Virus record (IMG/VR): IMGVR_UViG_2687453351_000002
Coordinates: 2,312 to 66,311 of that record
Reading direction: 5' to 3' (one strand)
DNA from: a virus
Length of the DNA stretch: 64,000 bases
The translations under genes were made by a program, and so were the position numbers. The first letter of the stretch is position 1. Each line of letters begins with the position of its first letter. Shown here in pieces: positions 16,215-59,465 of this stretch. The notes under the pieces are model-generated. The model searched no databases. It had not been told where the DNA came from and was given only the letters and a program-made list of their open reading frames with translations.

Positions 16215-16233
16215 GGATGAGGCCTCCCGGAAC

Positions 16234-16270
16234 GCAAAGCGCCCGCAGCGGGGGGGTCCGCTCCGGGCGC
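16234..16270 (-). terminator. Terminator-like hairpin at head of late operon
   Basis: GCGCCCG..AGCGG/CCGCT..CGGGCGC stem followed by TTTGCGTT on minus strand. Confidence 0.55.
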
Positions 16271-16285
16271 AGCTTGGGTGACGGC

Positions 16286-16315
16286 ACTATGTCAACGGGG
16301 CTAGAGAAACGTCAA
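16286..16315 (-). promoter_or_regulatory. Candidate late promoter
   Basis: TTGACG-N18-CATAGT on minus strand; second TTGAC 20 bp downstream. Confidence 0.5.
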
Positions 16316-16409
16316 GAAAAAAGTTTCTGTGGGCGGGAGCGTCGAGGATTCAGGAGCAGACCTGAGCCCGGTCATATCGTGTCATCATAGCCACATCATG
16401 TGCCGCAGA

Positions 16410-17373: not shown

Positions 17374-17470
17374 GGTCAATGCCCTCCGCCTCTTTACGGA
17401 GCGCCTCACGCTTTTCGTCTGCCTCCTGGCGAAGCTTTCTGAAGCGCTTCAACCATCCAATTCGACACAT
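17303..17470 (-). CDS. Small basic coiled-coil protein, first gene of accessory pair
   Basis: MCRIGWLKRFRKLRQEADEKREALRKEAE...; overlaps the next gene; start uncertain. Confidence 0.45.
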   Translation of the reverse strand: MCRIGWLKRFRKLRQEADEKREALRKEAEGIDREIEETRRDIKRGARKTKRRFHL

Positions 17471-17592
17471 CTGGCGACCACCCGGCGAATGTTCGACTGG
17501 TATACGCATCGTAAGGACGCTCTCCGATTTGCCTAGCACTACCTGATGTCTGCTCAAAGAGTCCATCTATGTACTGATCTCCAGTCGGCCTT

Positions 17593-18276
17593 TTACACCC
17601 ACGGCCGCATCGGTGGCATGTTCCGGGTGACCTCGATCCGCGTCAGGTCCGCCCCCGTCAAAGCCGCCTGTATCGCCAGCAGATAGCCCCACCAGTCGAG
17701 ATATGCCCGCCGCGCGGCCGCGATCCGGGCGGGCGTCGGATCCCAGACGCAGGGCGTGAAGCGCACCGCGTCCTGGACGATCACGCCCTTGCGGTTGCGG
17801 CGCGGGATCTGCTGCCAGCCCTCGATCCCGAGCGTGGCGGCATCCGCCGTCTTCGCGTAGCGGCCCCAGCGGTTCACCGTCCAGTCTTCCGGCTTCAGCC
17901 TTGGCCGGGCGTCGGGCATCCAGTCGGGGGTGCGGCCCGCGCGGGCGAGATCGGCCACCAGCGTCGCCGCGTACCAGGGCAGCGTGTTCCGAACCACGGT
18001 CGCGATCAGCTCGGCATCGTCATGCGGGGTCGACCGGCCGCGGCTGGTGTCGACGCGCGCGCCCAGCTGGGCGCGTTCGAGGGCCACGTATTCCATGCCG
18101 AAGGGGCGCCAGCCGGTGCCGCCGACCGCTTCGATCTCGTCATGGTCGAGCCGGGCGCATTCGGTGCCGAAGGCCCATTCCAGCGCCGCGCGCACCGGCA
18201 TCGCGCGCCGGGCCGGGCGCTTCCGCTGCCCCTGCATCTGCATTTGCCTGTCCATCATCATCGCGCGATCCTGCAT
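17593..18276 (-). CDS. Putative late-gene regulator
   Basis: AGGAG RBS before ATG 18276; last gene of early-right operon, upstream of packaging genes; function inferred from position. Confidence 0.55.
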   Translation of the reverse strand: MQDRAMMMDRQMQMQGQRKRPARRAMPVRAALEWAFGTECARLDHDEIEAVGGTGWRPFGMEYVALERAQLGARVDTSRGRSTPHDDAELIATVVRNTLPWYAATLVADLARAGRTPDWMPDARPRLKPEDWTVNRWGRYAKTADAATLGIEGWQQIPRRNRKGVIVQDAVRFTPCVWDPTPARIAAARRAYLDWWGYLLAIQAALTGADLTRIEVTRNMPPMRPWV

Positions 18277-18736: not shown

Positions 18737-20542
18737 TCAGAACGGCTCGTCGACGGGCGCACCGGCGCCGCCATGGTCTCTGCGATCTGCCATCCGGGCC
18801 GCGAACTCGTCGGTGAAGCGCAGGCCGCGATAGCCGGTCGCATCGCGCTTGGCCGGGATGAAGCTCTTGCCGGTATGGGGATGGCGCCAGCGGCTGGCCT
18901 TCTGCTTGAGCCGGTTCGACACGGTGCGGCCGCCCCATCGGGTCTCGCCGCGATCCTCCAGCCAGAAGTTGAAGGCCTCGATCAGCTCGCGCGAATAGAT
19001 GAAGTCGGCCTCGGCGCCGGTGACGATGGCGCTCTCGGTCAGGAAGGCGCCGACCGGATCGCTTTCCTCGCGATACTCGGCCGTCGCCTCCAGCACCCGG
19101 TCGGGCGGGCGCAGGCCGCCCTCGAGGAAGTCGGTCAGCCCCGCGATCAGCCAGTTGAGGATGCCGGGCGCCTCGTCCCAGAGCTTGTTGGCAAGCTCCG
19201 GATCGCGTCGTTCCTCGGGGATCTGCACATCGAACGGGACCAGCAGAACCCGGCGCCAGATCCCGTCATCGGTGCCGCGGATCTCGGGCTTGTGGTTGCC
19301 GCTCATGGTCAGCTTGAAATACGGCGAGAACTCCAGGAAATCGCTGTGCAGCGCCCGGATCATCAGGGGCTCGCCGCCGGTCAGTTCCTTGATCAGCCCC
19401 TCCTGCAGGCGCTGGCCCTCGTCGGGTTCCGAGGTGCGCACGAAGCGCGCGCCCATCAGCGGGATCAGGTCGGGCGTGGCATCGCCGCCGCCGCGCCGGT
19501 TGGTGCCGGTCAGCGACTCGATCCGGGCCGTCGCCGCATAGGGGCCCAGCACCCGGGCGATGGTGTCGACCAGCACCGATTTGCCGTTGGCGCCGCCGCC
19601 ATAGAAGAAGGCCAGGCGCTGCATCTTGATCCCGGTCATCGAGAGCCCCATCCAGCGCTGGACGAAGTCGCGCACGGTGGCGTCGGGCAGGATCTCCTCG
19701 AGGAAGGCGTCCCAGCGCGGGGCTGTCGCGGTGCGGTCATAGGCGACCGGCATGATCTTCGACAGCAGATCGCCGCGCAGATGCTCGGGCTGGACGCGCA
19801 GCTCGGCCACCGGCGACATGCCCTCGGCCGCAACCGTCGAAAAGCGCAGCGTGCCCGACAGCGTGTTGACGGTCAGCGGATCGGCATCGAGATCCTCATA
19901 GGCCCGGGCAAGCCCCGGTTGCGCCTGCTCGATCATGTTGCCGATGGGGCCGCTGTTGCCCGCATTCTTGGCATGCGTCAGGCGCCGGCCGATCAGCGAC
20001 TTGCGGTCCTTCAGGATGGCCTCGATCGATCTCAGCCGGGCGCGGATGGTGCCGAGCTCGTCGTCGTGATCCTCGGCGCGTTCGGCCTCGGGCAGGGCGT
20101 CGAGCCTGTCGAAGCGTTCGCGCAGGCGGCGCTCCTCGGCGATCACCTTCTTCTCGGATTTGGTCGGCTCGAGGACCTCGACCTCCTGCTCGATCAGCGC
20201 CCAGATCCGCTGCGCCTTGCGCCGGACGGCCAGCTCGTCGGGATCCTTTTCCCAATGGGTGCCGGTCCAGACGAACCAGCCGACCCGGGGCACGAAGGTC
20301 AGATCCTGCCCGAAATGGATGCAGAAGCGCTGGCCGTTGCCATAATCGTTCAGCGGCTGTCCGGCCGCCGCCCGGACCGGCCCGAGCGGATCTTCGGGGA
20401 CGGTTCCGTCAGGGGGGTGCGGGGGTTCCGCGCCGCCGTCCGGGTCGTTCGGGGCGGTGTCGGGGTCCGGGATGTCCCCCATATCCACGTCCTCGGCCGC
20501 CGCGAATGTGGCGCGGACGCGGTCCAGCGGGTCGTCAGTCAT
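18737..20542 (-). CDS. P4-family primase/helicase (D5-like SF3 ATPase)
   Basis: LNDYGNGQRF, GGGANGKS Walker A, SGNHKPEIRGTDDGIWRR. Confidence 0.92.
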   Translation of the reverse strand: MTDDPLDRVRATFAAAEDVDMGDIPDPDTAPNDPDGGAEPPHPPDGTVPEDPLGPVRAAAGQPLNDYGNGQRFCIHFGQDLTFVPRVGWFVWTGTHWEKDPDELAVRRKAQRIWALIEQEVEVLEPTKSEKKVIAEERRLRERFDRLDALPEAERAEDHDDELGTIRARLRSIEAILKDRKSLIGRRLTHAKNAGNSGPIGNMIEQAQPGLARAYEDLDADPLTVNTLSGTLRFSTVAAEGMSPVAELRVQPEHLRGDLLSKIMPVAYDRTATAPRWDAFLEEILPDATVRDFVQRWMGLSMTGIKMQRLAFFYGGGANGKSVLVDTIARVLGPYAATARIESLTGTNRRGGGDATPDLIPLMGARFVRTSEPDEGQRLQEGLIKELTGGEPLMIRALHSDFLEFSPYFKLTMSGNHKPEIRGTDDGIWRRVLLVPFDVQIPEERRDPELANKLWDEAPGILNWLIAGLTDFLEGGLRPPDRVLEATAEYREESDPVGAFLTESAIVTGAEADFIYSRELIEAFNFWLEDRGETRWGGRTVSNRLKQKASRWRHPHTGKSFIPAKRDATGYRGLRFTDEFAARMADRRDHGGAGAPVDEPF

Positions 20543-21681
20543 TCTTCGCCTTCCCCCATCAGTACATCGTTGAGATCGCGGCCCTCGCCTGCATGGACGA
20601 TGGAGATCCGCGTGACGGACGGCACCCGGGCGCGCGCCCGGCGCAGCCCCGAGAGGAGCTGGGCGCGGGTGCTGCGCGGCTCGGAATCGCCGTCCTGGAT
20701 AAAGACCAGGTGCTCGACGCCCGCAGGCGGCAGCCAGGCCTGGAGATCGTCGAGATCGGGCACGCCCGCGAAGCGCATGCCATTGCCGCGGGTGATCCGG
20801 CGGCCCGCCATGTTGCCAAGCGAGATCCCGGCCCAGAAGGCGGCGCCGGGCAGGGCGCGGGCGGCCAGCGCCGAGAAGGTCGTCTCGATGCCTTCGCCCA
20901 TCACCATGGCGCGGGTGCCGCTGGACCGGGCCAGCCGGATCGCGCCGCCCTTGACCGAGCCCAGCGTCTTCTTGGCGGCGAGGGTCTCGCCCTCATGGAC
21001 GATCACCGCCTTGCCCTTGGGCTGGCCGAGGTCGAGCCAGGTGCGGTGGATGCCGCTGCCCCGGCCGCCCGGCGCCTGCACCAGGGCGACCATGGCCGGG
21101 CCGCGATGGATCTCGCGCCAGCGGCCCCGGTTGCCCTCGGCGGGCACCATATAGGGCAGGTCGGGATGGAAGCGGAGGCAGGCGGGCAGCTCGGGCAGCA
21201 ACGCGCGGGTGAGGCCGCGCCGGGCGAGATAGTCGCGCACCGGGCTGTCCTCGGCCGGGCGGGAGTCGTGCCAGATGGCGCGGGCCTGGGCGATGGCGTT
21301 GCGCCGGGCGGCCTCGGCCTGCCTGCTCCGCTGGTGCGCCTCTTTCTCGCGGGCGGCCTTGCGCCGGGCCAGCTCGGCGGGGTCGGTTTCCAGCTCGCGC
21401 GTGCCCATCAGCCAGTCGAGCGCGGCGCGGAAATCGCAGCCCTTGACCAGTTCGACCAGCGCGATGGCATCGCCGCCGCCGCAATGGCGGCAGTTGAAGA
21501 CGTTGCGGGCGGTGTTGATGCCGAAGCGGTCGCGGCCGCCGCAGACCGGGCAGGGGCCGACGCGCTCGATGGCCTGTGGCGGTTTCAGCCCGGCGATGCC
21601 GAGCCGCTCGGCCACTTCGCCGATGGGCAGCGCGCGGGCCTCGGCCAGTCGGGGATCCTCGCGCGGGGGCATGGCGCTCAC
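20539..21681 (-). CDS. Primase with Zn finger and TOPRIM (DUF7146-like)
   Basis: CPVCGGRDRF..CRHC, GIHRTWL, GEGIET, DGD. Confidence 0.85.
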   Translation of the reverse strand: MSAMPPREDPRLAEARALPIGEVAERLGIAGLKPPQAIERVGPCPVCGGRDRFGINTARNVFNCRHCGGGDAIALVELVKGCDFRAALDWLMGTRELETDPAELARRKAAREKEAHQRSRQAEAARRNAIAQARAIWHDSRPAEDSPVRDYLARRGLTRALLPELPACLRFHPDLPYMVPAEGNRGRWREIHRGPAMVALVQAPGGRGSGIHRTWLDLGQPKGKAVIVHEGETLAAKKTLGSVKGGAIRLARSSGTRAMVMGEGIETTFSALAARALPGAAFWAGISLGNMAGRRITRGNGMRFAGVPDLDDLQAWLPPAGVEHLVFIQDGDSEPRSTRAQLLSGLRRARARVPSVTRISIVHAGEGRDLNDVLMGEGEE

Positions 21682-26032: not shown

Positions 26033-26256
26033 CGCTCGATTTTTCGCCCAGACTGATGCCTGCCGGGCAGGCGGCGCATTATCTTGGCATTTCAGCTTCG
26101 AAACTGCGCATGCTTCCAATTGCATCGAAGCGGCTTGATGGGAAACGGGTGTGGGACCGGCGCGATCTCGACGCTTATGCTGACGACCTGCCGACACACG
26201 GAGAAACGGACCAAGGCAACACATGCGACGCGCTGTTCATGGAAAAGGCATCCTGA
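26029..26256 (+). CDS. xis: Excisionase-like HTH protein
   Basis: AAHYLGISASKLR...RVWDRRDLDAY; immediately before integrase. Confidence 0.75.
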   Translation: MTLDFSPRLMPAGQAAHYLGISASKLRMLPIASKRLDGKRVWDRRDLDAYADDLPTHGETDQGNTCDALFMEKAS

Positions 26257-27332
26257 AGCACCTTAACGCCTCGGGGCGATGGCCCAGCGGGAATGTCCGC
26301 TATTATTACCGCCCCAAGGGTCAGAAAGGCGTTCCGCTGCCGGATCTGCCGCCGTCCCATCCGGATTTTCTTTCCGCCTATGCCCGTGCTGCCGGTCTTT
26401 CCGTGGCGCCTCTGCACTCCCCTCGCACGGGCTCGATCTCCGCGGGGATCGCAGATTACCTCAAGTCCGACGCATTCTTGTCCTTGTCTGCCGGTACGCG
26501 CACGCGGAGGCGGATCATGCTGGATGATATTCGAGGTCGCTATAGCACGGGGTTGGTACGCGATCTGCGCCCCCACCATATCCGCGCGGATCTTGAAGGC
26601 CGACCACCGCACCCTGCCAACAACCGCCTGAAATGCTGGCGCGGCCTGTGTCGCTGGTGGCAAGAAGCCGGGCTGGCCGAAGAAGATGCAGCAAGTCCGG
26701 TCCGCGCGCGTCGCGTATTACCGACTGAAGGCCACCTGCCATGGTCGCGCGACGACATCGCAAAATTCCGCGCCAGATGGCCGCACGCAACATCACAACG
26801 CCTGGCGTTCGAGTTACTGTTCTGGACAGGCGCGCGCATGTCGGATGCGGTGCGGCTAGGGCCGGGCATGGTCGACGCCGATGGCTGGCTGAGCTATCGG
26901 CAGTCGAAGACAGGCGGGCAGGTTGACGTTCCCTTTACCGCCGCAGCTCCAGAATGGGCCGAGCCATCTGATCGCGTCCATCTTTTTTCTGCCCTCAGGG
27001 AACAGGCCGACCGCCATGCGGTCTGGATGGTCACCGCCCAAGGCCGCCCCAGGTCAATCAAGGCGGCCAGCCAGTGGTTTTCCGCAGCGGCGCGCGCCGC
27101 TGGCATAACCGGGGGACGGTCGGCCCACGGACTGCGAAAGACCCGCGCCCAGATCATGGCCGAACGCGGCGCCACACCCGACCAGCGCGCCGCATGGCTG
27201 GGGCACGAGTCGCTGTCAGAGGTTCAGCACTATAGCCGCGGCGCTGATCGCCGACGAATGCTGGCGGGAATAGACCCCGAACCTAAAAGTTCCAACTCGT
27301 CGGATCGAGTTCCAACTTGGATGCGCAAGTAG
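26223..27332 (+). CDS. int: Tyrosine integrase
   Basis: Catalytic set TGARMSD, SKTG, AHGLRK, WLGH, QHYSR intact. Confidence 0.95.
   Translation: MRRAVHGKGILKHLNASGRWPSGNVRYYYRPKGQKGVPLPDLPPSHPDFLSAYARAAGLSVAPLHSPRTGSISAGIADYLKSDAFLSLSAGTRTRRRIMLDDIRGRYSTGLVRDLRPHHIRADLEGRPPHPANNRLKCWRGLCRWWQEAGLAEEDAASPVRARRVLPTEGHLPWSRDDIAKFRARWPHATSQRLAFELLFWTGARMSDAVRLGPGMVDADGWLSYRQSKTGGQVDVPFTAAAPEWAEPSDRVHLFSALREQADRHAVWMVTAQGRPRSIKAASQWFSAAARAAGITGGRSAHGLRKTRAQIMAERGATPDQRAAWLGHESLSEVQHYSRGADRRRMLAGIDPEPKSSNSSDRVPTWMRK
27288..27317 (+). repeat. AGTTCCAACT direct repeat; candidate integrase arm sites
   Basis: Copies at 27288-97 and 27308-17, adjacent to att core. Confidence 0.5.
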
Positions 27333-27359: not shown

Positions 27360-27409
27360 TGGTGACCCCGGCAGGACTCGAACCTGCAACCTATCCCTTA
27401 GGAGGGGAT
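27360..27409 (-). other. att core: 3' half of tRNA-Arg(CCT)
   Basis: Minus strand ATCCC-CTCCTAA-GGGAT anticodon arm, GCAGG-TTCGAGT-CCTGC T arm, ...GTCACCA; no D arm upstream. Confidence 0.9.
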
Positions 27410-27941
27410 AGGTTCCGGGGCAAAATAAGCAAAACTCGACAAAACAAGCACTCCCTATGCAAGCGTGTTCCCGGTTTGTGCAGCGAAATCCGGCTTGCGC
27501 AGGTTCAGCGAACCAAAGAGCACTCCCCAAATCACAAGGGATCCATGGCTAATGACGCCCCCCCCCACCAGCTGCCATCGGGTCCGCACTGATGACGGTC
27601 TCGAGGTCCTGATCCCGATGTGCTGCGTATCCACAATAGGCGATCCGGGCGCCTGCGCCTTTGGAGCGCCAGAAAGCCGAATCCAGGCGGCCAGACCTAG
27701 GAGGCTGAGCGGCAGGTCAGGCGCGGTTCGGGGCGCCGGGAATCTCTCCATTACGGCTTCTGCGGAAGATCTCGACACATGATCTTGCTAGGGCTCAGCC
27801 TTGTCGCCTCATCAGCCGCGCCACTCTGCCTCTCGGCATGATGCCGCCAATGACGATGCGTCCTCGAACGCAGACGGCAGCGTGGGATTGCCAGCAGAGG
27901 ACCTACCTCACTACCTTGGCGGGAATTCGAGAGGGTATTTC

Positions 27942-28490
27942 ATGAGTGGCTTCTTTCGTCAGGACGCCCGCATGGGCCGGAGTCCCACGGCGCTGGGGCA
28001 GGACGTTCTGGTGCTGCGCCGGTTTGAAGGCACCGGCCATCTGAACGCGCTGTTCGACTGTTCCGCCGATTGTCTGGCCGCCCCGACCGCTGTCGATTTC
28101 GACCGGCTGATTGGCACCCACGCCACCATTACCCCCACCACCCGCGAGGGAGAGCGGCCCTTCGATGGCATCGTCACCGAGGCCCGCTGGCTGGGCTCCG
28201 GCGATAATGGCCATCGCTACTGGCTGCGTCCTTGGGCTTTCCTTGCGAGCCTCCGCCGTAACCAGCTGATCTTCAGCAACAAGACCGTGATCGAGATCCT
28301 GACCGAGCTGCTGTCGGCCTCTGCCCATGCGGGCGCGCCGCGGACGAACGCGGCCAGGACCACCGCTTCGAGGCCGAGGGCGATATCGCGACGCTCGGGG
28401 CGGGCAGCCGGGTGGTGCCGGAGGGCAATCCGGTGCCGGGAACCGGCGGCGAGGACCCGTGCCTCAGCGCGCGGCATTCCGACCCGGCCG
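27942..28490 (+). pseudogene. vgrG: VgrG (T6SS spike) remnant with internal deletions and frameshift
   Basis: MSGFFRQDARMG..TALGQDVLVLRRFEG..FDGIVTEARWLG..LRPW..RNQLIFSNKTVIEIL, then second frame ADERGQDHRFEAEGD..CLSARH. Confidence 0.8.
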
Positions 28491-28520
28491 CCAATTCCCG
28501 CTTAAAGACGAAGTATAATC

Positions 28521-29453
28521 ATGGCCGGTGTAACGATAAGTCAGTTTTTGTCATCCAAAGACTCTCCCGCATGGCTTGTTCTGGATGGGGTGAATTGCCC
28601 CGATCTCCCGCACTTTCTTGAGGGAACCGAGCACTGCTGCTTTTATCGCGAAACGGGTCAGAAGCAGCCCCTCCATGCCCCGTGGATGATCCACATGGAT
28701 GACAGAATCTCCGAGATGGCGTCTTTCCTGCCAAACGATACGCATTGGGGATTCATCTTCACATCTCACTGGCCAATGCGAGATTTGCGCGCACATTTTC
28801 GACGCTACACGATGCTGAAGACTCCGCAGAATGAGGTTCCGGTTTATTTCCGTTTCTATGATCCTCGTGTGTTGTTCGATCTTGGTTATGCGCTTGAGGC
28901 AGATAAACTCCGGATGTTTATGCGCCCGTTCGGCAGGCTTGCAATTCCGTTGTCACCTCTTCTCGGTGAAAGATGCGGGCTCTCGCCCTTGGCCCATCAT
29001 GATGCTTTCCGGTCAAAATTTTTGACGCTCCCTATCCCGCCAGAAGAGCCGCCAGGAAAGGGTTCTCAGAGCTTTCAGATCGGAATGGTTGAGTATCGGC
29101 GCTTTGAGAATCTGCAAGCCAGAAGAGCCGAACGAAAACTGGCGCGTGAGTTGCATTTCACTGCCAGACACAGGTCAGACGCCGAAGTTCTTGACATCGC
29201 AGCGGAGGCTACTTCGCGCGCCGAAAGATATGGTCTGACATCCGTGCGTCAAATTAGGTTGTTCGCGAAATGCATGCTGAAATTCGGCCCCACTTTCGAC
29301 GAAACTCATCCGGGAGCGCGAGAGGTTTTGACGCGAAGGCGAGTCTCGGTTCGTGAAACATTTATCGCTTTGCAAAACTGGTACACGACTGCAGGCGACA
29401 AGCCATTTCCCGCAGGCGCCTCCCAGGACTTGGATATTTGGAATCGATTGTAA
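28521..29453 (+). CDS. DUF4123 T6SS effector adaptor
   Basis: WLVLDG, APW, WGFIFTS, LRAHFRR, VYFRFYDPRVL motifs. Confidence 0.88.
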   Translation: MAGVTISQFLSSKDSPAWLVLDGVNCPDLPHFLEGTEHCCFYRETGQKQPLHAPWMIHMDDRISEMASFLPNDTHWGFIFTSHWPMRDLRAHFRRYTMLKTPQNEVPVYFRFYDPRVLFDLGYALEADKLRMFMRPFGRLAIPLSPLLGERCGLSPLAHHDAFRSKFLTLPIPPEEPPGKGSQSFQIGMVEYRRFENLQARRAERKLARELHFTARHRSDAEVLDIAAEATSRAERYGLTSVRQIRLFAKCMLKFGPTFDETHPGAREVLTRRRVSVRETFIALQNWYTTAGDKPFPAGASQDLDIWNRL

Positions 29454-29467
29454 GGAGTGCGCGTTTC

Positions 29468-31117
29468 ATGAAATATTATGTTCCGACAATAGATGATATT
29501 GAAGCGTTGGTCGGTGCGCATCCTGGTAAATTCTCTTCCCCCCTGCAAACCATGCGGTCGATTGCCAATGCCCGTGCCCAGGGCGAAACGGTCAGCCAAA
29601 TTACGGCGCAAAATCAGTATCAGGATTATCTGTCCAACGGCGGCGAGCCGATGAATTCGGATGGCGCCATTCCGCCAGCTGAAGCGGTGCACGATCAGCC
29701 CCAAGGCAAAGCGGGATGCGATTGTGCGGCGGCTATGCCTTGCTGCGTGAACTCGATAACGCTTGGCTGTTCGCATCGCGACGCGCGCCTCACCCTACCT
29801 CAGGAGGAAAAGGCGAATGGGCAAACGAATTGTAAGCTCGTGCTTGTTGCAGACCAAGGTGGCTCCTCTGGATACGATCTATTGAAGGTGACACTCGACA
29901 GGACGCCCCATGGCGACTGCATCATGCCAAAGCAGATGCCGAAATCCCTGATCAAAATGGAAGGTGGTGAGACCGAAGAGAAGACCGCAGAAGACTATGA
30001 AATCAAGCTTACCTACCCCGGAGATACAGATCTGGGCCAGACGGACATTGAAAGATTTGTCAACGCCACGAAGTACACGCTATTGGGGGATCTGGAGAAG
30101 ATTGGAACAAACTATTCACTGAAGCTCGACACCTGCAGTGGCGAGACAACGTTCAACAGTGTGCTTCAAGTTTATCCCAGACTCGAGTGGACGGCTGCAA
30201 GTTTTGGATACGAGATCAAAGGCACCTACTACACGGACTTTACCTTTGTTCCCAGCGTTGCCCTGACAGGAAAACTCGACGGTACCTTCGGGGCAACGAC
30301 CTTTTCCATCGAGGGTGAGGGAGAGAGCAAAACCGATCCGGAAAACCATTCCCGATCCCTCGTTCCGTTTCTCGACAAAACGCTCTCCAAACTTCAAGGC
30401 TTGACTGGTGAGGGGGCGAGAACCAGCGAAAATTCCACACATTCTTCGATCTCCGTGTTCCACAAGGTCGATCTTGGAACCAGCAAATTCAAACTGGTCG
30501 AGCATCCCTCCGATCCGGCTGCGGTTGGAATCGACGCGAATGTCACAATGGGATTTGCTCCTCTCATCGGTATTGAAGCCAAGCTCGATATTATTGATGC
30601 ACTTTTGACAGCAGCCAACGGCGTGGCTCCCGGATTTGCTGAAGCTCTTCGCAAAGCGCGAGAGGTGATGGCAAAAGGTATCGGAGAAAGGGACAGCAAC
30701 GCTCACCTTTCTGCACATGCGGCTGTCACCTTAACTATCACTGGCACTCTGGGAGATGCCAACGTGGTTATATCCCGCAAAGTCAATGAAACGAGATGGT
30801 CGGGCAAGGGAGAGGTGTCTGGATCTCTCGAGATTTCGATCGCTGCTATCGTGAAGGCGGAAGGGAAAGCCTATATTGTGGAGAGTACCTTTTCCGCATC
30901 AGGACGCGCAAGATCAAAGCTCACAGCGGCACTGCAAACAATAAATTCACCACAGAGCGATAAGAAGTTGAATGCAAAAGTTGGATGGAATGGAATTAAG
31001 GTTAATGTTGCTGCTGAGGCGAAGGTTCGTGGCTTCGGAATCGTAAATATGAGCACACAGGGGAAAAAGGAAGTCCCGATACGAAAAGAAGAGGTGTTCT
31101 ACGATGCGGATTTTTAA
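29468..31117 (+). CDS. Putative T6SS effector of unknown activity
   Basis: AAGGAG RBS; directly downstream of DUF4123; AT-rich; no recognisable catalytic motif. Confidence 0.65.
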   Translation: MKYYVPTIDDIEALVGAHPGKFSSPLQTMRSIANARAQGETVSQITAQNQYQDYLSNGGEPMNSDGAIPPAEAVHDQPQGKAGCDCAAAMPCCVNSITLGCSHRDARLTLPQEEKANGQTNCKLVLVADQGGSSGYDLLKVTLDRTPHGDCIMPKQMPKSLIKMEGGETEEKTAEDYEIKLTYPGDTDLGQTDIERFVNATKYTLLGDLEKIGTNYSLKLDTCSGETTFNSVLQVYPRLEWTAASFGYEIKGTYYTDFTFVPSVALTGKLDGTFGATTFSIEGEGESKTDPENHSRSLVPFLDKTLSKLQGLTGEGARTSENSTHSSISVFHKVDLGTSKFKLVEHPSDPAAVGIDANVTMGFAPLIGIEAKLDIIDALLTAANGVAPGFAEALRKAREVMAKGIGERDSNAHLSAHAAVTLTITGTLGDANVVISRKVNETRWSGKGEVSGSLEISIAAIVKAEGKAYIVESTFSASGRARSKLTAALQTINSPQSDKKLNAKVGWNGIKVNVAAEAKVRGFGIVNMSTQGKKEVPIRKEEVFYDADF

Positions 31118-32036
31118 ACTGGTTTTGACGATAAGCTTGATGATGTCAGGGAGCACAATGATGGCAAATGAACTCGCCCCTTCGGAGACAGCTCTTGGGA
31201 TTGATCTGAATCTGAGCGCCGCCATGCTCGATTTCAGGGTGAATGATGTCCCGATCTTGGATCCGCAGACTCCTCTGAGTACCGACGCTCAGATCACGAC
31301 GCAGCTGACATTGAATGAGGCCTTCACTAAAGGTCAAAATACCATATCTTTCTCTTTGAAATTCAAGCCGAACTCAGAGTGGACGCCAAGTCTTCATCTT
31401 CGGCTGCATTCCTGGCCAGCCGGAACCTTGCCCGAGCTGTTTCAGGGATCGGATTTTGTGTTCGATGTAACCGTAGCTGCTTCGCAGAATGATCCGGACA
31501 AGGTCGAGATTACCCAAATGACAGGCACGGGGCAGCCCACGGCCACAATCTCCAATATACACCAGACGGCTGGCGACGGCACAACCGATAGCTGGAACAC
31601 GTGGACGGTGACAGCAAACGTGATGATCAACTTCCCGCAGGACGCATGGCAGTCCGCGCAGTTTCTTGAGCTCACGCCCGAACTTCGAAGAGAACTTTCT
31701 GGCGAATATATGAAGGTACACTCCGCCCTTTCACAAGGAGAGCGCGCCGCCAAAATGGCTCTGGCCCCCTATATCCATCGTCTTGCTGGGGGCATTGGTG
31801 CCAGCGACGAGGAATATTATGCCTCCGGGTATGAGGCGTTGCTTTCCGGGGAAGCCGGGTTCACGCTCCGTCCGTTCGATGCCGATGAAAGCATCGTGCA
31901 ACTCTATGGTCACGGCCGCCTTGCTGCTCTGTTGCCTCTTCCAATCCGGTATTGGAATCCCGAAGCCGAGCAAGAAGCAAGCCTGTTCCTCTATTTCTGG
32001 AAGGACCAGACGGGGCAGTGGCAAATCATTCATTGA
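31104..32036 (+). CDS. Putative periplasmic immunity protein
   Basis: Overlaps effector stop; signal-peptide-like MRIFKLVLTISLMMSGSTMMA. Confidence 0.65.
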   Translation: MRIFKLVLTISLMMSGSTMMANELAPSETALGIDLNLSAAMLDFRVNDVPILDPQTPLSTDAQITTQLTLNEAFTKGQNTISFSLKFKPNSEWTPSLHLRLHSWPAGTLPELFQGSDFVFDVTVAASQNDPDKVEITQMTGTGQPTATISNIHQTAGDGTTDSWNTWTVTANVMINFPQDAWQSAQFLELTPELRRELSGEYMKVHSALSQGERAAKMALAPYIHRLAGGIGASDEEYYASGYEALLSGEAGFTLRPFDADESIVQLYGHGRLAALLPLPIRYWNPEAEQEASLFLYFWKDQTGQWQIIH

Positions 32037-32136
32037 AGGCCTTGTGCTCGTTTTGATCAGGGACGCAATGTGATTGATCGCTCACGCAGCTTTCCTGTAC
32101 CGCCATTTGGCGTTTCACAGACTGAGGTCATAAGGC

Positions 32137-32463
32137 TCAGTGTTTTCTTCTGACCGCCTCGCCGATCCGCCGCCCGATCTCGCCGGGCGAGGGCGCGATC
32201 CATCCGATCAGCGCGACCAGCACGATCCAGGGCGGGATGACATTGACGATGACGGTGTCGACGCGGTCGGCGCGGAGGCGGTTCTCGGATTGCTCCTGGC
32301 GGATCTCGCGGGCGCGCGGCCGAACGATGGACGGCGCGTTCTCGACCTTCTGGCCTTGCACGTTCTCGGCCCCCGCCTGGATATTCGCGGCGACGTTTGG
32401 CCCAAGCGGAACCGGCAGCCCGCCGCATCCGGCCAGCAGCAGCGCCGCGAGGAGCGCCCTCAT
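32137..32463 (-). CDS. Lipoprotein with C-terminal TM helix; candidate unimolecular spanin
   Basis: Lipobox LAGC; C-terminal VIPPWIVLVALIGWIAP; follows endolysin. Confidence 0.6.
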   Translation of the reverse strand: MRALLAALLLAGCGGLPVPLGPNVAANIQAGAENVQGQKVENAPSIVRPRAREIRQEQSENRLRADRVDTVIVNVIPPWIVLVALIGWIAPSPGEIGRRIGEAVRRKH

Positions 32464-32969
32464 GCGCCGTCCCAGCGGAACGGCACCTCGGCCGGGATCC
32501 CGTCGAGCCCCTCATGGCAGAGCTGCCGGGCCTTGTTGCGGCGGATCAGGAGGCCGCGAACGCCCTTGCCCCCGGCGAAGCGCCAGCGCGGGAGCTCATT
32601 GCAGGCGCCGCGCAGATCGCCCGCATTGAGCTTCCGGATCAGGGTCGAGCGCGCGGCCGCGCCGAGGCCCACATTATAGGCCCAGTCGAGGATGCCCACA
32701 TAGCTCCGGTCCGGGATCCGGTCCTCGACGGGATCCGCGATCAGCCGGTCGAGCCCGGCCTCGAACCCAGCCAGGCGGTCGGCGAACATCGCCCGGCACT
32801 CGGCGGGGGTGTAGCTGTCGCCGAGATTGACGCCGCGCGTTTCGCCGAAACAGACGGTCGGCACGCCGACGATGTCGAGATAGGCCTCTGTCTTCAGGCC
32901 CTCATTGCCGCCGATGAAGCTGAGCGCGAGGGCGGTGGCGGCCGCGCCGCGCTTGAGGATCTTGCGCAT
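32460..32969 (-). CDS. Lysozyme-family (GH24) endolysin with SAR-like N-terminus
   Basis: EG..AYLDIVGVPTVCFGET catalytic E-D-T; K/R then Gly/Ala-rich hydrophobic N-terminus. Confidence 0.9.
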   Translation of the reverse strand: MRKILKRGAAATALALSFIGGNEGLKTEAYLDIVGVPTVCFGETRGVNLGDSYTPAECRAMFADRLAGFEAGLDRLIADPVEDRIPDRSYVGILDWAYNVGLGAAARSTLIRKLNAGDLRGACNELPRWRFAGGKGVRGLLIRRNKARQLCHEGLDGIPAEVPFRWDGA

Positions 32970-33672: not shown

Positions 33673-34233
33673 TCATGCCGCCTTGTACCCGCAAACTTTC
33701 TGCATGATGATTCTGGAGATGGAGTTATCCCTCTCCCTGTGCCTCAATTGGATCGCGTCCACCCGACCAGCGGGCAGGGTAAGGGTTAGGTCCTCGTGAA
33801 ACTGGTAGAGCTTGTCGTCAACCCAAGCCAAAAACGTCCCATCGGCGTAGGTATTCCCGGTCTCAAGGTTGATCATGATGCGGCAGGACAGCTGGCCCCG
33901 ACGGTCGTTGACCAAGTCCATGAAGCCAGACCAAGTGACTCCTCCGTCCGTAGAGAATCTAATCTCCAAGTCCTCCGACGTGCCCGGCCAATTACCATAC
34001 AACTCGAAGCGCAGCCACTTCGTACCGCCTAGACCAAGTACGGTCTGATGTGCTCTGCCCGACCACTCCAGCACCGTAATCGAGTCGATGAAAGCGGTGG
34101 GGCTTACGCCGGGAGCCCCCGGAGCCCCTTCGGCGATTGCGACCGGGTTGTCACGAAGCGCACGGCCATCGACCGCACGGCCCGGCTTGCCTGCTTCGAT
34201 GACGTCATTCGGGATGGTTGTCCAATCCGTCAT
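33673..34233 (-). CDS. Small tail fibre / receptor-binding protein
   Basis: MTDWTTIPND...LRDNPVAIAEGAPGAP N-terminus; AT-richer C-terminal half. Confidence 0.7.
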   Translation of the reverse strand: MTDWTTIPNDVIEAGKPGRAVDGRALRDNPVAIAEGAPGAPGVSPTAFIDSITVLEWSGRAHQTVLGLGGTKWLRFELYGNWPGTSEDLEIRFSTDGGVTWSGFMDLVNDRRGQLSCRIMINLETGNTYADGTFLAWVDDKLYQFHEDLTLTLPAGRVDAIQLRHRERDNSISRIIMQKVCGYKAA

Positions 34234-35993
34234 TGCCAGAGATATCCTTCTGATCCGTCGGGCATGAGCCCGTCTTCGTCTGCCCACCAAAAGCCGTTGA
34301 GCTTTTCATCATCGGTCGCGCTGCCAAAGTCGGGGGCGTCGTCGTCCATCCAGACCAGGTAACGCGTGGCCTGGTAGATGAACTGCTGCAGCAGGTATTC
34401 CGTGACCTCGCCCGGCTTGACCTGCTGCGCCTTGATGACCTGCCAGCGGCGCGTGACCGGCTGACCTTCCGTGTCGACATCGAGGCGGGTGGTCAGATCG
34501 GCCACCTCTCCGATCCGCAGCGCGCCATCGGCCAGTGTCGCGGTCAGATAGCGGGGCGCCGTCTTGAACCGGGACAGCAGGCGCTGGCAGAGTTCGTAGG
34601 CCTGCGCGTCGGTGGTGATCCAGCGCGAATAGATGGTCTTCGACCGGACATCCGCCCCGCCGGCCTCCATCTCGAAATCCGGCTCGATCCTCCCGCGCAT
34701 CGAGCGGTAGTTGTCGGGATCGTCCGATTTCGTGGGGTTCTCCGGATTGTAGTAGATGAAGATCCGGCTGATCCTCTCGTCCGGTTCGCGCGCCTGTGCC
34801 AGCGATCCGGCGACGATGTGCGCATCCCCGGTGATTGCGACGGAGGACTGCTCGGGCCGCACCGCCTTGAAGTCGATCAACTGCGCCCGTTCGTTCCACC
34901 AGATATAGAAGGTCCCGTCGCGCACCAGCTCGCCGAGCAGCTTGTTGACGGCCGTGGGTTTGTGGACCGTGCGCGAGAAGGCATAGCCGTTGAGATAGGT
35001 GGACGCCTCGGCCTGCCAGGCGTCGAAGTCCACGAACTCGGCCGGAACCGGCGTGTGGCCCGTCAACAGGTCATGTGCGATCAGGTAGCCGTCCATAAGC
35101 TCGTAGCGGCCGGTCCGCTGGGCGCTGGCATCATCGGAATGCGAGGCAGCCTTCGTGCCGAGGGCGGCGCGTGTGACGCCCGACAGCGTCCAGACGCCCT
35201 CGCCACCGGAATAGCCGGTATAGCCGATGATCTCGGACCCGATGCACAGATAGCGGGTGTCGGTATTGCCGAACCGATCTGAAAGGTCGGCCTCGCGCGC
35301 GGCCTCGATCACGATATCGGTCGCGTCAGCCGCAATGTCACCGGACAGGCGCATCTCGGTCTCGCGCGGAAACTGGGCGCGGGATTGGTCGGTGAGCCGG
35401 AGCGGGTCCACCCCCTTGAGCGTGACCCTCCCGTTGCTGTCCGGGCCGTCGACGCTGTCGAGCACGTAAAGCCGCCGCTCCATATCGGCCAGGGCATCGC
35501 CCGCGACCCCCTCGTAGACCCGCAGGAACATGTTGGCGTAGAACGGGTTCCGGGCGCACCACTTGGCCCAGAACGATCCGGGCCGGGCTCCGCGTGCGGC
35601 CCTGTACCAATCGCCGACATAGTCGTCGAAGGGCGCATCGGTGAGAGAGACGGTCACGCCGCCGGTGACGCCCAGAGGCTTTTCGCCGTCGCGGATCGAG
35701 CCCACGTTGATCTTGCTCGACCGGACCGAGACCGAGCGCAGCATCGGAAACGGGTTGGTCGCGACATGCTCGCCCGTCCGTTCGTAAAGCGGCACCAGCG
35801 CCTGCGTCGGCTTGACGAAACGCCAGGCAATCGAGCCGTCGCCGCGATAGTGTTCGCGGTCGAGGCAGGTGCCCCAGCAATTGTAGCAGCGCGGGCCATC
35901 GGCCAGCGTCGCCCTGCAAGGCGCGACCCCGAACCGCTCGGCGCAACGCGGCTGCCAGAGCTCGACGATCTGGATCGGTTCACGCGGCGGCAT
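34230..35993 (-). CDS. Tail hub / baseplate protein
   Basis: CxxxFGVAPC..CYNCWGTC; GRVTLKGVDPL; follows Dit. Confidence 0.75.
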   Translation of the reverse strand: MPPREPIQIVELWQPRCAERFGVAPCRATLADGPRCYNCWGTCLDREHYRGDGSIAWRFVKPTQALVPLYERTGEHVATNPFPMLRSVSVRSSKINVGSIRDGEKPLGVTGGVTVSLTDAPFDDYVGDWYRAARGARPGSFWAKWCARNPFYANMFLRVYEGVAGDALADMERRLYVLDSVDGPDSNGRVTLKGVDPLRLTDQSRAQFPRETEMRLSGDIAADATDIVIEAAREADLSDRFGNTDTRYLCIGSEIIGYTGYSGGEGVWTLSGVTRAALGTKAASHSDDASAQRTGRYELMDGYLIAHDLLTGHTPVPAEFVDFDAWQAEASTYLNGYAFSRTVHKPTAVNKLLGELVRDGTFYIWWNERAQLIDFKAVRPEQSSVAITGDAHIVAGSLAQAREPDERISRIFIYYNPENPTKSDDPDNYRSMRGRIEPDFEMEAGGADVRSKTIYSRWITTDAQAYELCQRLLSRFKTAPRYLTATLADGALRIGEVADLTTRLDVDTEGQPVTRRWQVIKAQQVKPGEVTEYLLQQFIYQATRYLVWMDDDAPDFGSATDDEKLNGFWWADEDGLMPDGSEGYLWQ

Positions 35994-37326
35994 CGGCATG
36001 CCCCGTCGCCGTGAAACCGACGCTGACGAAGTTCCGCATGCCCTGGCGCGCGGGCACGATCGGATCGTCAACCCAGGCATAGACGCAGTCGGTCGGATAG
36101 CCCTCGGGTCTCGCCGCGATGAAAAACGGCTCGGTTCGCGCGGCCCTGGCGAACGGGTCGAAGGTCTGGCGATACCAGTCCTCGGGCAGGTTCTGCCACT
36201 CAAAGGCCCCGGAAAGCCCGGCGCGCTGGATGAACCGCCCCATCAGCTGGCCGCCTTCACTGATATAGCTGGTGAGAACGGCGGTGCGTCCAAGATCGGC
36301 CGACCCCAGGTTCGTATACCCCATGCGGGGCATTTCGAGGGCCTTGCCTGTGTACACCACTCCGATCCGGGCGGGCTGGGATACCGAGACCCGGATTCCA
36401 TCAGTCTCGACGGGATCGAAGAGATACAGGATCGCGCTGTCGTCAGAAGGCAGCAGCCAGTCATCCGAGACCGCCCACCAAGCGGAAGTAGCGCCCCCTG
36501 AAAGCGTCGGAATATAGGGGGAAGGCGTCTCCCGAGCCTCCGCTTGTGCCCCAAAGACTTGAACGGCTTCCCCGCTGCCCTCGTAAGACAGGGTTCCGTC
36601 GTCAAGGACGATGTTTATTCTGATGTTCACGCTGGCCTCAACTTGCGCCGGAGAGGTCAGGGAAACTCGGTACCAGCCAGTGTTCCCCACTGGAACCGAG
36701 ATGGCAGTGGCCGTTCCGAAAGTGGACAGGATTTGCCCATCCGGCCCCAAGTCGCATCCGCAAGGGGCGGGGTACGCCGCGCCGACGAAAGCCATCCTCA
36801 ATCTTCGCTGAGGGCTCATTGGCCCGGGCAGCACATACAGAGAGAAGGTGTACAACTGCCCCGCCACAGCATCCGTAAATCCGGCCTGAATGAAGTGCTG
36901 CCCGTTGCCGGTCTCTGTAAGAAGCCTCGCGTCAGAAGAACCATCTGGCCCTTCGGCAATCACCAAGTCGACATTTACGATGGTCGGCCAAAGGGGAAAG
37001 TCCTGAGAATACCAAATCAGGTTCTCGTGGATTTCCCCGGGGGAATACTCCGCTCTGGCACTCGCCCCCGTGGTCCCCAGTGTGTGGGCACCAATGCCGA
37101 TGGCATCAACCACTCGTGAGAACGGATACGTGATCTGCCATGACGCGGGGACGGCCTCGGGCTTCCACCAGCTGTTGGTCTCGACGGTGTCGGCCAGCCC
37201 GGCCTCGAAGCCCTCCGCCTCGCTGGTGGCGCCGACTGAGCCCGCGGCTTTGTCCCACAGGATGCGGGCATGGGTCATCGGATAGGGCGACGCCGCCGCG
37301 TGCCCGAGCGTGTAGGTCACTGCCAC
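35980..37326 (-). CDS. Distal tail protein with inserted carbohydrate-binding-like domain
   Basis: After TMP; internal NLIWYS...FGAQAE...PSPYIPT segment. Confidence 0.7.
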   Translation of the reverse strand: MAVTYTLGHAAASPYPMTHARILWDKAAGSVGATSEAEGFEAGLADTVETNSWWKPEAVPASWQITYPFSRVVDAIGIGAHTLGTTGASARAEYSPGEIHENLIWYSQDFPLWPTIVNVDLVIAEGPDGSSDARLLTETGNGQHFIQAGFTDAVAGQLYTFSLYVLPGPMSPQRRLRMAFVGAAYPAPCGCDLGPDGQILSTFGTATAISVPVGNTGWYRVSLTSPAQVEASVNIRINIVLDDGTLSYEGSGEAVQVFGAQAEARETPSPYIPTLSGGATSAWWAVSDDWLLPSDDSAILYLFDPVETDGIRVSVSQPARIGVVYTGKALEMPRMGYTNLGSADLGRTAVLTSYISEGGQLMGRFIQRAGLSGAFEWQNLPEDWYRQTFDPFARAARTEPFFIAARPEGYPTDCVYAWVDDPIVPARQGMRNFVSVGFTATGHADAAA

Positions 37327-37363
37327 TCTGGTGCTCCTTTTCTGCGGAGGTCGCTTCGCGCCG

Positions 37364-39502
37364 TCAGCCTGCGGCGCCCTGCCAGTCGAGATTGAGCCGA
37401 TAGCCGTCGCCGAAGGCCTCGTTCAGCGCCTTGACCAGCGCCTCGCCGCTCTGGCGGCCGATCACGTCGCCCTGCACGGTGACGTTGGCGGTTCGCTGGG
37501 GCGCGGGCGCCGCCGCTTGGGCCGCAGCCCCGGCCGACGAGGCCCCGCCGCCCGAGCCCGATTTCGACCCGCTCTTGATCGCGGCAACCAGCGCGAGCCC
37601 CTTTGCCATCACTGTTGCCATGGCGGCGATGTTTTCCGGGAAGGGAAGCTCGAGGGCCTTCGCGGCCCCCACGTTTGTAGAAATCAGCGCCTGCGCGGCC
37701 CCGGCGACCTGGGCCATCTTGAACGCCTTGTCGTTGAAGGCCCCGAGCGCACCCAGAACGTCTTGCGTCGCGGAGAGCGTCTGTGCCTTGCGGCCTTGGT
37801 TCGAAAGCCGCTCGATGTTCGCAAGCCGGTCCTGGTGCTCCTGCTCCAGCTTCTCCCGGAGGGCCTTATATTCCTGGTCGTTGATCGCCTCGGCTTCTCG
37901 CGCCTCCTGAAGTGTTTGGAGGCCCTTCTCGTACCATTCCTGAAGAACTTCGTTCTCGGTTTTCAGCCCCTCCTGCAGGGCCTCTAGCCGCTCTTTCAGC
38001 GACTCCTTGATTTCGTCGGCGCCCGGGAGGCCTGGGAGGATCGGATCCTCTTTTTCTTTCGTCGGCTTGTCTCCCGGCTTGTCTTCGGGGTCGTCTCCAT
38101 CATTGCCTACGGTGGTGAGGGTTTCTTCGAGCCGAGCCTTGGCCTCGGCAAGTTGCTGCTGAGCGGCGTTCAGCCGTTCGGCTGCAGCTTCTGTCTTCGC
38201 CGCCATGTCTTCCGCATAGCCGGAGTTGCCACCTGCGGTCAGCGGGTTCTGATCCAGAAGACTGTTGCCCGAAGCTTCGAGTGCTTGGACCTTCGCAAGC
38301 TCGGCCTCCGCTGCGGCAAGGGCGCTCTCGGCCAGCTCGTAGTTGTTTTTCGCCAGATCGACGGCCGCCTTGCCCGCTTCCGGCGATCCGGTGTCCGTGA
38401 AGACGCCCAGCACCCGGTTCAGCTCGGCCTGCCTTTCCGCCGCTGCTTTCGACCCCTCGGCCGCGTCTTCGGCCTTCTCGCGCCACTTGGAAATACCCAC
38501 GAGGGCGGTTCCGAGCGCGCCCCCGACTGCCCAGAGCGGCCCGCCCATGGCCGCAAGCGCCACGGCGGCAACGCTTGCCGCGGTGGTCACAATCTCCAGG
38601 TTGTCGGACAGCACGACCACGCCGCGGGCCAGCCCGGCGGCAAGGTCCGTGACCGTCGCGATGCCCGACGCCGCCGCGCCGAGGAAGTCCTCGGAAAGGA
38701 TGGCCTCGGACAGGCCGTCGAAGGCTTCGGCCATCTCCGAAATCGCGTCATCCGCGTCGGCCGAGGACAGCAGATCGTCCAGCTTGTCGGCAGCATCGCT
38801 GAGCGTCGGAGCGAATGCCCCGGCGATCTTGATTTCCAGCGCTTCGATGGTGGCGGAAACGCGGCTCATTGCCCGGTTGGCGTCCTGAAGGTCAGAGATC
38901 ATTTCGTCGGAAATGATCTGCCCCGCGCCGGACGCCGCGTCCCCGAGTTTCCGCATTTCGCGCCCGCCGTTCCGCAACAGCGGCAGCAGCGTGGTCGTGT
39001 CGGAGGCCAGGGCCTCCATGTAGAACGTCATCTGCTGTTGGTTCACGCCCGCCTTTTCGAGCGTGTCGACGTAAAGCTGCAGCGCCTGGGGGCCGGAGAG
39101 GTTGCGGAACTGCTCCGCCGTGACGCCGACCTTGGGGGCGATTTTCTCGAAAAAGTCCGACATTTCGCCGGAGCCGGTGGACAGGAACTCGCCCACACGG
39201 TCGGTCACGTCCTGCAGAATGTCCCCGAGCTTGTCTTGCTCGACCCCGGCCGTGCGCGCCGCGAATGCCATCTTCTGGAAGGCCTCGGGCGTGGCGTTCG
39301 CCCGCTGCGCCAGGATGTTGATCGACTTGGCTGCGTTCATGCCCTTTACGGCCATGACGCCGAAGGCGCCCACCACGGCGGTGCTCGCGGCTATCGCGGC
39401 GGTGCCGATCCCGCGGAGGCTTCTCCCCGCGCGATCGACAGCCCGTTCGAGTCCCTCGGTCTCGCCGGTGATCTCGACGTTAAGCGGCTTGAGAAATGGC
39501 AT
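37364..39502 (-). CDS. Tape measure protein
   Basis: 712 aa helical, LNVEITGETEGL start, LSGPQALQLYV, coiled-coil C-terminus. Confidence 0.9.
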   Translation of the reverse strand: MPFLKPLNVEITGETEGLERAVDRAGRSLRGIGTAAIAASTAVVGAFGVMAVKGMNAAKSINILAQRANATPEAFQKMAFAARTAGVEQDKLGDILQDVTDRVGEFLSTGSGEMSDFFEKIAPKVGVTAEQFRNLSGPQALQLYVDTLEKAGVNQQQMTFYMEALASDTTTLLPLLRNGGREMRKLGDAASGAGQIISDEMISDLQDANRAMSRVSATIEALEIKIAGAFAPTLSDAADKLDDLLSSADADDAISEMAEAFDGLSEAILSEDFLGAAASGIATVTDLAAGLARGVVVLSDNLEIVTTAASVAAVALAAMGGPLWAVGGALGTALVGISKWREKAEDAAEGSKAAAERQAELNRVLGVFTDTGSPEAGKAAVDLAKNNYELAESALAAAEAELAKVQALEASGNSLLDQNPLTAGGNSGYAEDMAAKTEAAAERLNAAQQQLAEAKARLEETLTTVGNDGDDPEDKPGDKPTKEKEDPILPGLPGADEIKESLKERLEALQEGLKTENEVLQEWYEKGLQTLQEAREAEAINDQEYKALREKLEQEHQDRLANIERLSNQGRKAQTLSATQDVLGALGAFNDKAFKMAQVAGAAQALISTNVGAAKALELPFPENIAAMATVMAKGLALVAAIKSGSKSGSGGGASSAGAAAQAAAPAPQRTANVTVQGDVIGRQSGEALVKALNEAFGDGYRLNLDWQGAAG

Positions 39503-56138: not shown

Positions 56139-56246
56139 GGGAAACGCCTTTTCCTTGAGGGGGGCTCGCGCTGCGCGCACCTTGGGCGCATGGAGCAAAG
56201 CCGTTTTCATCGTTCATTTGAGGAGTGGGGGACCGGGGGCGCGGCA

Positions 56247-56480: not shown

Positions 56481-56488
56481 ACAGCAGA

Positions 56489-56541: not shown

Positions 56542-56578
56542 GATGATGATTGGCGTCGCGGATATGCTGTTCGCTGAC

Positions 56579-59404: not shown

Positions 59405-59465
59405 GGTTATATCCCCCAGCGGTAAACCGCAGGTTTTTTGCTCTTCCTTCTCGGTGACAGCCCAG

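Follow-up and report, generated by a model that had tools for sequence, protein, structure and literature searches.

Several antibacterial type VI secretion system (T6SS) toxins are alpha-helical pore formers, such as the colicin-like VasX/TpeX proteins, Tme1/2, Ssp4, Ssp6, Tse4, TseMt and Tke5, which act in the periplasm and depolarize their targets, and several of which use DUF4123 adaptors. Within this group, a helical structure or predicted transmembrane (TM) helices have been described for Ssp4, TpeX, TseMt and the Tme proteins, and the immunity protein is integral to the membrane in the case of Sip4 and of most Tmi proteins. TpeV, encoded in the T6SS Aux 4 cluster of Vibrio cholerae, is one of few T6SS toxins known to depolarize cells. 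It has 535 amino acids (aa) including 11 Cys, no TM segment, no signal peptide and no known domain, and it permeabilizes Escherichia coli and dissipates the membrane potential from the periplasm only (Crisan et al., 2021, mSphere, PMC8386463). Its gene has vgrG and a DUF4123 gene upstream and the gene of a Sec-tagged immunity protein, TpiV, downstream, while among its homologs some carry OmpA-like domains, some have several nearby immunity genes and some lie near transposase-like genes; truncated vgrG-like genes occur in some species and were excluded from Fig. 4 of that study (PMC8386463). Neither a structure nor a mechanism of TpeV was found in the searchable literature. Here we describe a cassette of this kind in the 68.7-kb IMG/VR provirus record IMGVR_UViG_2687453351_000002, of which a stretch of 64,000 nucleotides (the window, positions 2,312 to 66,311 of the record) was analyzed. 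Its effector gene (29468..31117, + strand, 549 aa) and the putative immunity gene that follows it (31104..32036, + strand, 310 aa) probably encode, together with a chaperone gene upstream, an antibacterial T6SS toxin that permeabilizes membranes as TpeV does and a periplasmic protein that protects against it.

A T6SS cassette and its probable kinship to TpeV

On the plus strand a VgrG remnant is followed by the genes of a DUF4123 adaptor, of the effector and of its putative immunity protein, and by its gene content and order the locus is a real, intact T6SS adaptor-effector-immunity cassette. The adaptor/chaperone (28521..29453, + strand, 310 aa) is intact (PF13503, E 1.7e-16, with a weak match to Tla1) and stands directly upstream of the effector, as for T6SS cargo effectors that use such adaptors. 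The effector open reading frame (ORF) is open from 29438 to 31117, and the ATG at 29468 is its likely start because it lies ∼10 nt past an AGGAG and 15 nt past the stop of the upstream gene. The immunity ORF overlaps the end of the effector by 14 nt, with its ATG within the last codons of the effector and an AAGAGG of its own, so that the two genes are set up for coupled translation. The reading frames of adaptor, effector and immunity protein are all intact. The same four-gene order, with a full-length VgrG, is found in Celeribacter naphthalenivorans (L001), Tateyamaria (L002) and a Pseudomonadota genome (L015), where in the first two a 316-aa gene holds the position of the adaptor, and a TssC sheath gene is present in each of the three genomes containing loci L001-L003.

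Pfam and NCBIfam put names only on the neighbors of the effector, as Phage_GPD/VgrG and DUF4123. Searches of Pfam, NCBIfam and PDB sequences with the single effector and with a 123-sequence profile gave nothing meaningful, including no match to nuclease, lipase or amidase families, in line with the first-pass annotation, which recognized no such motif. The sole profile match, to ribosomal protein L29 (E 0.002), was discounted as a low-complexity match, and the ESM Atlas returned only unnamed clusters for the effector and for its partner. The effector was called unassignable in the first-pass annotation, and this holds for the curated domain libraries only. The close homologs number only eight, each a Rhodobacteraceae protein annotated as hypothetical, and the family is present in 2 of 401 sampled Rhodobacteraceae genomes and 3 of 401 sampled Pseudomonadota genomes. 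A profile search of 1.84 billion cluster representatives, with a cut-off of E 0.001, gave 176 proteins, one of them from a Myxococcales assembly, and a second wide word-index search with a large alignment added none. Motifs are collinear along the whole length across this family, and the window effector is ∼20% identical to its gammaproteobacterial members. Some relatives have everything between the Cys cluster and the C-terminus joined to VgrG, VgrG-PAAR, Tox-PAAR-like or Rhs carriers, which shows that this part is a bona fide T6SS toxin domain.

The link to TpeV was drawn through homologs that are probably shared. Table S1 of the TpeV study, obtained with phmmer, includes 534-aa homologs from Serratia fonticola as well as homologs from Xenorhabdus, and has D7HF18_VIBCL and A0A1J0QXD6_VIBCL as nearly identical proteins from V. 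cholerae (PMC8386463). Among our profile matches, the cluster of P0163 contains S. fonticola proteins of 534 aa, the species and length of two of those entries, and P0152 is a Xenorhabdus protein of 506 aa. The profile of the close homologs aligned to P0163 with an hhalign probability of 93.5% (E 2e-7), and the E value of P0163 in the profile search was 1.1e-4. Like TpeV, the window effector is Cys-rich (8 Cys in total) and of similar size (535 vs 549 aa), with no N-terminal signal peptide and no predicted helical TM segment (maximum 19-residue Kyte-Doolittle mean of 1.43). The loci are also alike: vgrG (a remnant here, intact in relatives) and the gene of a DUF4123 adaptor precede each effector, and the next gene on its downstream side encodes a Sec-tagged immunity protein. 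Both effectors also have homologs with OmpA-like domains (P0127 among ours) and homologs with several immunity genes close by, as well as associations with mobile elements and with truncated copies of vgrG. The window effector differs from the gammaproteobacterial members in belonging to an alphaproteobacterial branch at ∼20% identity and in having an extra N-terminal module of three helices that many of them lack, and its immunity protein cannot clearly be placed in one family with theirs. Taken over the sequence comparisons, the effector very probably belongs to the TpeV family as a distant alphaproteobacterial member. The suggestion that it might represent a new pore-forming family was thus not borne out as stated, as the family is widespread and is apparently the one described in 2021, and the toxin is of an already known kind to which the predicted structure and the allele mosaic described below add a modest amount of new information.

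Predicted structure and mode of action of the effector

An AlphaFold2 (AF2) model built from the 123-sequence alignment has a mean predicted local distance difference test score (pLDDT) of 88.8 and a predicted template modeling score (pTM) of 0.73, compared with a pLDDT of 41 when 8 sequences were used. It divides the effector into three parts. Residues 1-70 (29468..29677, + strand) form a module of three helices (residues 8-17, 25-38 and 40-56), a possible loading module that many distant members lack, and the low-confidence residues that follow these helices, up to residue 88, are taken as a linker. Residues 84-237 (29717..30178, + strand) comprise a Cys cluster and an immunoglobulin (Ig)-like beta sandwich (residues 89-237) in which the cysteines lie, and residues 238-549 (30179..31114, + strand) comprise a long-stranded amphipathic beta domain with a helix at 300-313 and a helical hairpin at 375-403. 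In this C-terminal domain of 310 residues there are 13 predicted strands (within residues 239-548), some with lengths of 21-26 residues, and the long strands show a strict alternation of hydrophobic with polar positions across the family. The Cys cluster (residues 84-103), the hairpin motif (residues 362-394) and the long alternating beta stretches, all pointed out from the sequence in the first-pass annotation, are present, and the first two are conserved in the eight close homologs and, as motifs, across the 123 distant ones. As a separate observation on the N-terminal part, residues 1-130 alone match P0039, P0047, P0088, P0089, P0114, P0126 and L010, proteins of ∼610-640 aa with C-terminal parts outside the profile, and the two that were scanned, P0039 and P0047, have no Pfam domain; from these alignments, residues 1-130 look like a shared delivery module that carries swapped toxins.

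The fold check that had been called for was run on the predicted model, and Foldseek found no PDB match at E 0.001 or better. A single match among viral models (E 6e-4) is unnamed and has TM-scores of 0.05-0.09. Among the best 50 matches in each of three PDB fold searches with the whole 549-residue model there were no beta-type pore-forming toxins of the aerolysin or hemolysin type. The sandwich domain resembles the carbohydrate-binding domain of Wzt and accessory domains of glycosidases, and the amphipathic beta domain resembles outer-membrane barrels only loosely. As modeled, the effector is a beta-rich protein with no convincing match to a solved structure, and a confident prediction of an Ig-like sandwich joined to a long-stranded amphipathic beta domain is new here.

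In these respects the window effector differs from the helical T6SS pore formers, as it is predicted to be beta-rich, lacks hydrophobicity of the TM-helix type and has a soluble-looking partner with a single N-terminal hydrophobic stretch. No sequence similarity to the helical group appeared in any search, and Ssp4, TpeX/VasX, TseMt, Tme and TseVF were ruled out as relatives by helicity, length or membrane-embedded immunity proteins. Outer-membrane beta barrels (autotransporter translocators, porins, FadL, TonB-dependent receptors and Omp85) were also compared, and the effector has neither the Sec signal nor the conserved C-terminal aromatic beta-signal of these proteins. A mimic of an outer-membrane protein carrying a signal for the beta-barrel assembly machinery (BAM), considered from the end of the sequence (...VFYDADF), was dropped, as a C-terminal F occurs in only 22 of 123 members and many have polar tails.

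Most conserved positions of the effector hold Cys, Gly, Pro, Trp or Tyr (C92, C151, C223, P158, Y216, P237, W241, PLxG at 365-368, and G404, G426, G448 and G509), and the stretch from 351 to 384 is both the most hydrophobic and the most conserved. This structural type of conservation, the lack of a TM helix and the strictly amphipathic strands suggest a non-enzymatic mode of action. An enzymatic one has to be weighed against it, in which the effector would attack the cell wall or another envelope polymer in the periplasm with E345 and D374 as catalytic residues and the Ig-like domain as a carbohydrate-binding domain. E345 (90%) and D374 (89%) are the only well-conserved acids of the protein, the resemblance of the sandwich to Wzt and to glycosidase accessory domains would fit such a role, and relatives are fused to the peptidoglycan-binding modules LysM (8 proteins), PG_binding_1 (2) and OmpA (1, P0127). 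The immunity protein also looks soluble and periplasmic, as it does for the Tae, Tge and Tle toxins. Two acids amid conservation dominated by Gly, Pro and Cys make a thin active site, however, and neither the sequence searches nor the structure searches gave a match to a hydrolase family or fold. LysM also heads TseVF, a T6SS toxin that is proposed to be membrane-active and in which deletion of LysM left killing unchanged, and the probable characterized relative, TpeV, permeabilizes and depolarizes cells. An envelope-degrading enzyme is accordingly an improbable description of this toxin.

We therefore prefer a TpeV-like permeabilizer, in which the DUF4123 adaptor would place the effector of 549 aa on the spike of a VgrG, which would fire it into a neighboring Gram-negative cell, with the periplasm as its place of action; the fusion of relatives to three unrelated peptidoglycan-binding modules points to the same compartment. 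By analogy with TpeV, the effector would then permeabilize the cytoplasmic membrane and collapse the membrane potential and would not be an enzyme, while in the producer and its kin the 310-aa Sec-exported partner would bind the toxin in the periplasm and so protect them. From the model, the N-terminal helices could serve in loading, the Cys-rich Ig-like sandwich is possibly a binding domain stabilized by Zn or disulfides, and the large amphipathic beta sheet or barrel may shield the conserved hydrophobic hairpin (PLIG...DIIDALLTAA) until membrane contact. Pore formation is putative for the window effector and for TpeV alike. More tentatively, the C-terminal 310 residues might be a new membrane-insertion module of the beta type, in which an amphipathic sheet or barrel cages the hydrophobic hairpin and rearranges, alone or as an oligomer, into a barrel-like pore; we regard this as possible but rather doubtful.

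The earlier idea of a toxin acting on the periplasm or membrane together with a periplasmic partner is supported by the cassette, the Sec signal of the partner, the peptidoglycan-binding fusions and the probable link to TpeV. Several points weigh against a TpeV-like permeabilizer. The link to TpeV runs via homologs identified by species and length and not by accession, and the profile-search E value of P0163 is only 1e-4. The peptidoglycan-binding fusions would also be compatible with an enzyme that acts on the cell wall. For most of the known T6SS pore formers the immunity protein is an integral-membrane one, in contrast to the soluble-looking partner here, whose alignment with the IdsF-named neighbors of the S. 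fonticola effectors, discussed below, is weak (hhalign E 0.0015-0.004, probability 8-17%). Finally, VgrG is pseudogenized, and the record is a provirus extract that contains no T6SS core gene in its 68.7 kb. The comparisons show the gene order, the homologies, the fusions, the predicted model and the allele mosaic described below, and we infer the toxicity of the effector, its target, pore formation, its contact with the immunity protein and its indirect link to TpeV.

The immunity partner and an allele mosaic

The partner opens with a basic n-region followed by a hydrophobic core and then an MMA|NE site with no lipobox Cys, a Sec-type signal spanning ∼residues 1-21 as read from its sequence; this pattern is retained in homologs, so the earlier call of a signal peptide stands, and the single N-terminal hydrophobic stretch of the protein is read as this cleavable signal. 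The immunity family is small and has no named match in domain searches. A gene occupies the same position in L001 and L002, and L001 holds three tandem immunity paralogs, the third of which is 80% identical to the window immunity protein, yet the L001 effector is a different allele. Identities within the immunity family, of 80% vs 30-38%, match in depth those among the effector alleles described below.

A possible connection to gammaproteobacterial immunity proteins comes from P0173, P0175 and P0178, which are 314-315 aa long, are annotated as 'IdsF' and have accession numbers consecutive with those of the 534-aa S. fonticola effectors, which suggests that they are probably encoded adjacent to them. 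They were listed in the cluster of the effector, though they are not homologous to it. Like the window partner, the IdsF-named proteins have ∼315 aa and a hydrophobic N-terminal stretch, and they align with it collinearly but weakly. In a further locus, L014 (4940-8707), three tandem genes downstream of the effector encode proteins 32-34% identical to them. The name is source annotation only, after the ids operon of Proteus mirabilis, whose IdsF is reported only as not conferring strain-specific identity; judging from these alignments, the IdsF of the ids operon may belong to an immunity family for TpeV-like toxins.

The six closest effectors were compared with one another for allelic variation. 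Over residues 1-390 they fall into two lineages, with 94-99% identity within and 86-88% between them. Residues 391-549 (30638..31114, + strand) are instead a polymorphic, recombining block with three allele types, 80-89% identical within and 40-45% between types, that cut across the N-terminal lineages, and the recombination break lies close to the second helix of the hairpin. In these sequences the pattern is the usual signature of an arms race between effector and immunity protein. Because the alleles are swapped naturally, the last ∼160 residues, that is the C-terminal strands, are probably the part that the immunity protein recognizes and would set the specificity of immunity, which offers a direct handle for experiments. 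As far as the sequences tell, three swapped C-terminal alleles alongside arrays of orphan immunity genes are new here.

Two of the related loci contain additional features. In Tateyamaria, just upstream of VgrG (L002:2829-6819), there is a second adaptor-effector-immunity module, whose three proteins have 408, 601 and 338 aa. That of 601 aa retains the C-D-C...P-C-C motif and is 24% identical over the C-domain, and its partner is ∼21% identical to the immunity protein of the window, so that by sequence the module looks like a deep paralog pair at one locus. Just downstream of the same cassette, on the minus strand (L002:13006-20376), is an ORF of 2456 aa with no Pfam match. It may contain internal repeats, as a different frame of that strand has ORFs of 160 or 194 aa at regular intervals. 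At L014:8643-10873 (minus strand) a 198-aa ORF with an OB-fold (Phage_base_V) and PAAR overlaps the start of the effector ORF, and the two represent either a split or a fused 'VgrG-PAAR-effector' form, comparable to P0125 and P0155.

VgrG decay and the phage-like surroundings

The VgrG-like ORF of the cassette (27801-28505, + strand, Phage_GPD/VgrG) is a damaged gene. With the full-length VgrGs of L001 and L002 as tblastn queries, the surviving parts (27951..28495, + strand) correspond to residues 3-135 and then, in another frame, to residues 278-331; the Pfam match to Phage_GPD covers only profile positions 4-117. The damage amounts to two deletions and one frameshift, and nothing is left beyond residue 331, so that OB fold, gp5 spike and C-terminal tail are all missing. 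Delivery in this host would therefore need another VgrG.

One reading of this damage is that the cassette is a relic, in which the effector is no longer delivered and selection keeps only the immunity gene as a defense against neighbors that fire this allele. The loss of the whole spike half of VgrG, the orphan immunity arrays in relatives, the rarity of the family among the sampled Rhodobacteraceae genomes and the lack of a T6SS core gene in the record would all agree with it. On the other side, the three remaining frames are intact with their ribosome-binding sites and translational coupling preserved, a 99%-identical effector is present in another Rhodovulum sulfidophilum record, and cargo effectors can ride on a VgrG encoded elsewhere. 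A decayed cassette kept only for immunity thus seems to us unlikely.

The surroundings of the cassette are phage-like. The GC content of the record is ∼70% and falls to 48-56% over the stretch of ∼28.7-32.0 kb, making a low-GC islet. Two further low-GC patches are present in the window at 16000-18000 and 56000-60000 (0.58-0.59 vs ∼0.70), the first of which encodes a 298-aa ORF (16410-17306, minus strand) with no Pfam match. On its left the cassette is bordered by a tyrosine integrase (26223..27332, + strand, PF00589, E 5e-18), downstream of which the 3′ end of a tRNA gene (∼27360-27410, minus strand) can be read from the sequence. ARAGORN detected a whole tRNA neither in the window nor elsewhere in the record, and no att repeat of the tRNA fragment turned up in a search. 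On its right, an ORF of the phage lysis region (32057-32515) lies 21 bp from the end of the immunity gene and is followed by the phage lysozyme of the right-hand prophage (32460..32969, minus strand, PF00959, E 2e-33), which forms the right border.

The record contains two separate phage-like modules, at 4600-25900 and 32057-55000 of the window and both on the minus strand. The left module has a portal gene (12328-13629), a large terminase gene (13626-15287) and two primase-like genes (18737-21681), and the right-hand module has tail fiber, tail and tape-measure genes (34230-39502), a head morphogenesis gene (45483-47318) and a portal gene (47311-48675), all of these on the minus strand. Head genes thus form two modules, one with terminase and portal (12.3-15.3 kb) and one with portal and head morphogenesis genes (45.5-48.7 kb), and the tail and lysis genes of the second reach down to ∼32.06 kb. 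The IMG/VR 'provirus' is probably two tandem elements, and the cassette occupies the gap between the right-hand lysis region and the integrase and tRNA fragment of the first element.

The cassette might then be true prophage cargo, a moron that the right-hand phage packages and moves and that arms or protects the lysogen. The classification of the record as a provirus, the 21 bp that separate the immunity gene from the lysis region and the low GC of the islet relative to its surroundings would be expected of such cargo. Against it, the cassette sits exactly between two separate head modules, beside the integrase and the tRNA fragment, and may be an islet trapped between two insertions. The missing att repeat also speaks against it, no relatives were found on other IMG/VR contigs or in isolate phages, and the cassettes of relatives lie in chromosomal VgrG islands, one of them flanked by Tn7-like genes. 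That the right-hand phage carries the cassette as its own cargo is conceivable but somewhat less likely than not. The island with Tn7-like flanks is that of L001, where Mu-transposase-C/TnsB-like, TniB and TniQ genes bracket it at L001:2580-7029 and L001:15914-20917, and these flanking genes suggest that the whole L001 island is transposon cargo.

Lying between two prophages and beside a dead VgrG, the cassette of the window illustrates on a small scale the movement and decay of cassettes of this kind. If its effector is a member of the TpeV family, then this family reaches from Gammaproteobacteria to marine Alphaproteobacteria, with one further match in Myxococcales, and the confident model would show a beta-rich toxin of three parts that is unlike the characterized helical T6SS pore formers. 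If, in addition, the C-terminal domain proved to be a beta-type insertion module, the TpeV family would provide the first beta-structured pore formers delivered by the T6SS, and their fold would be one without a solved relative.

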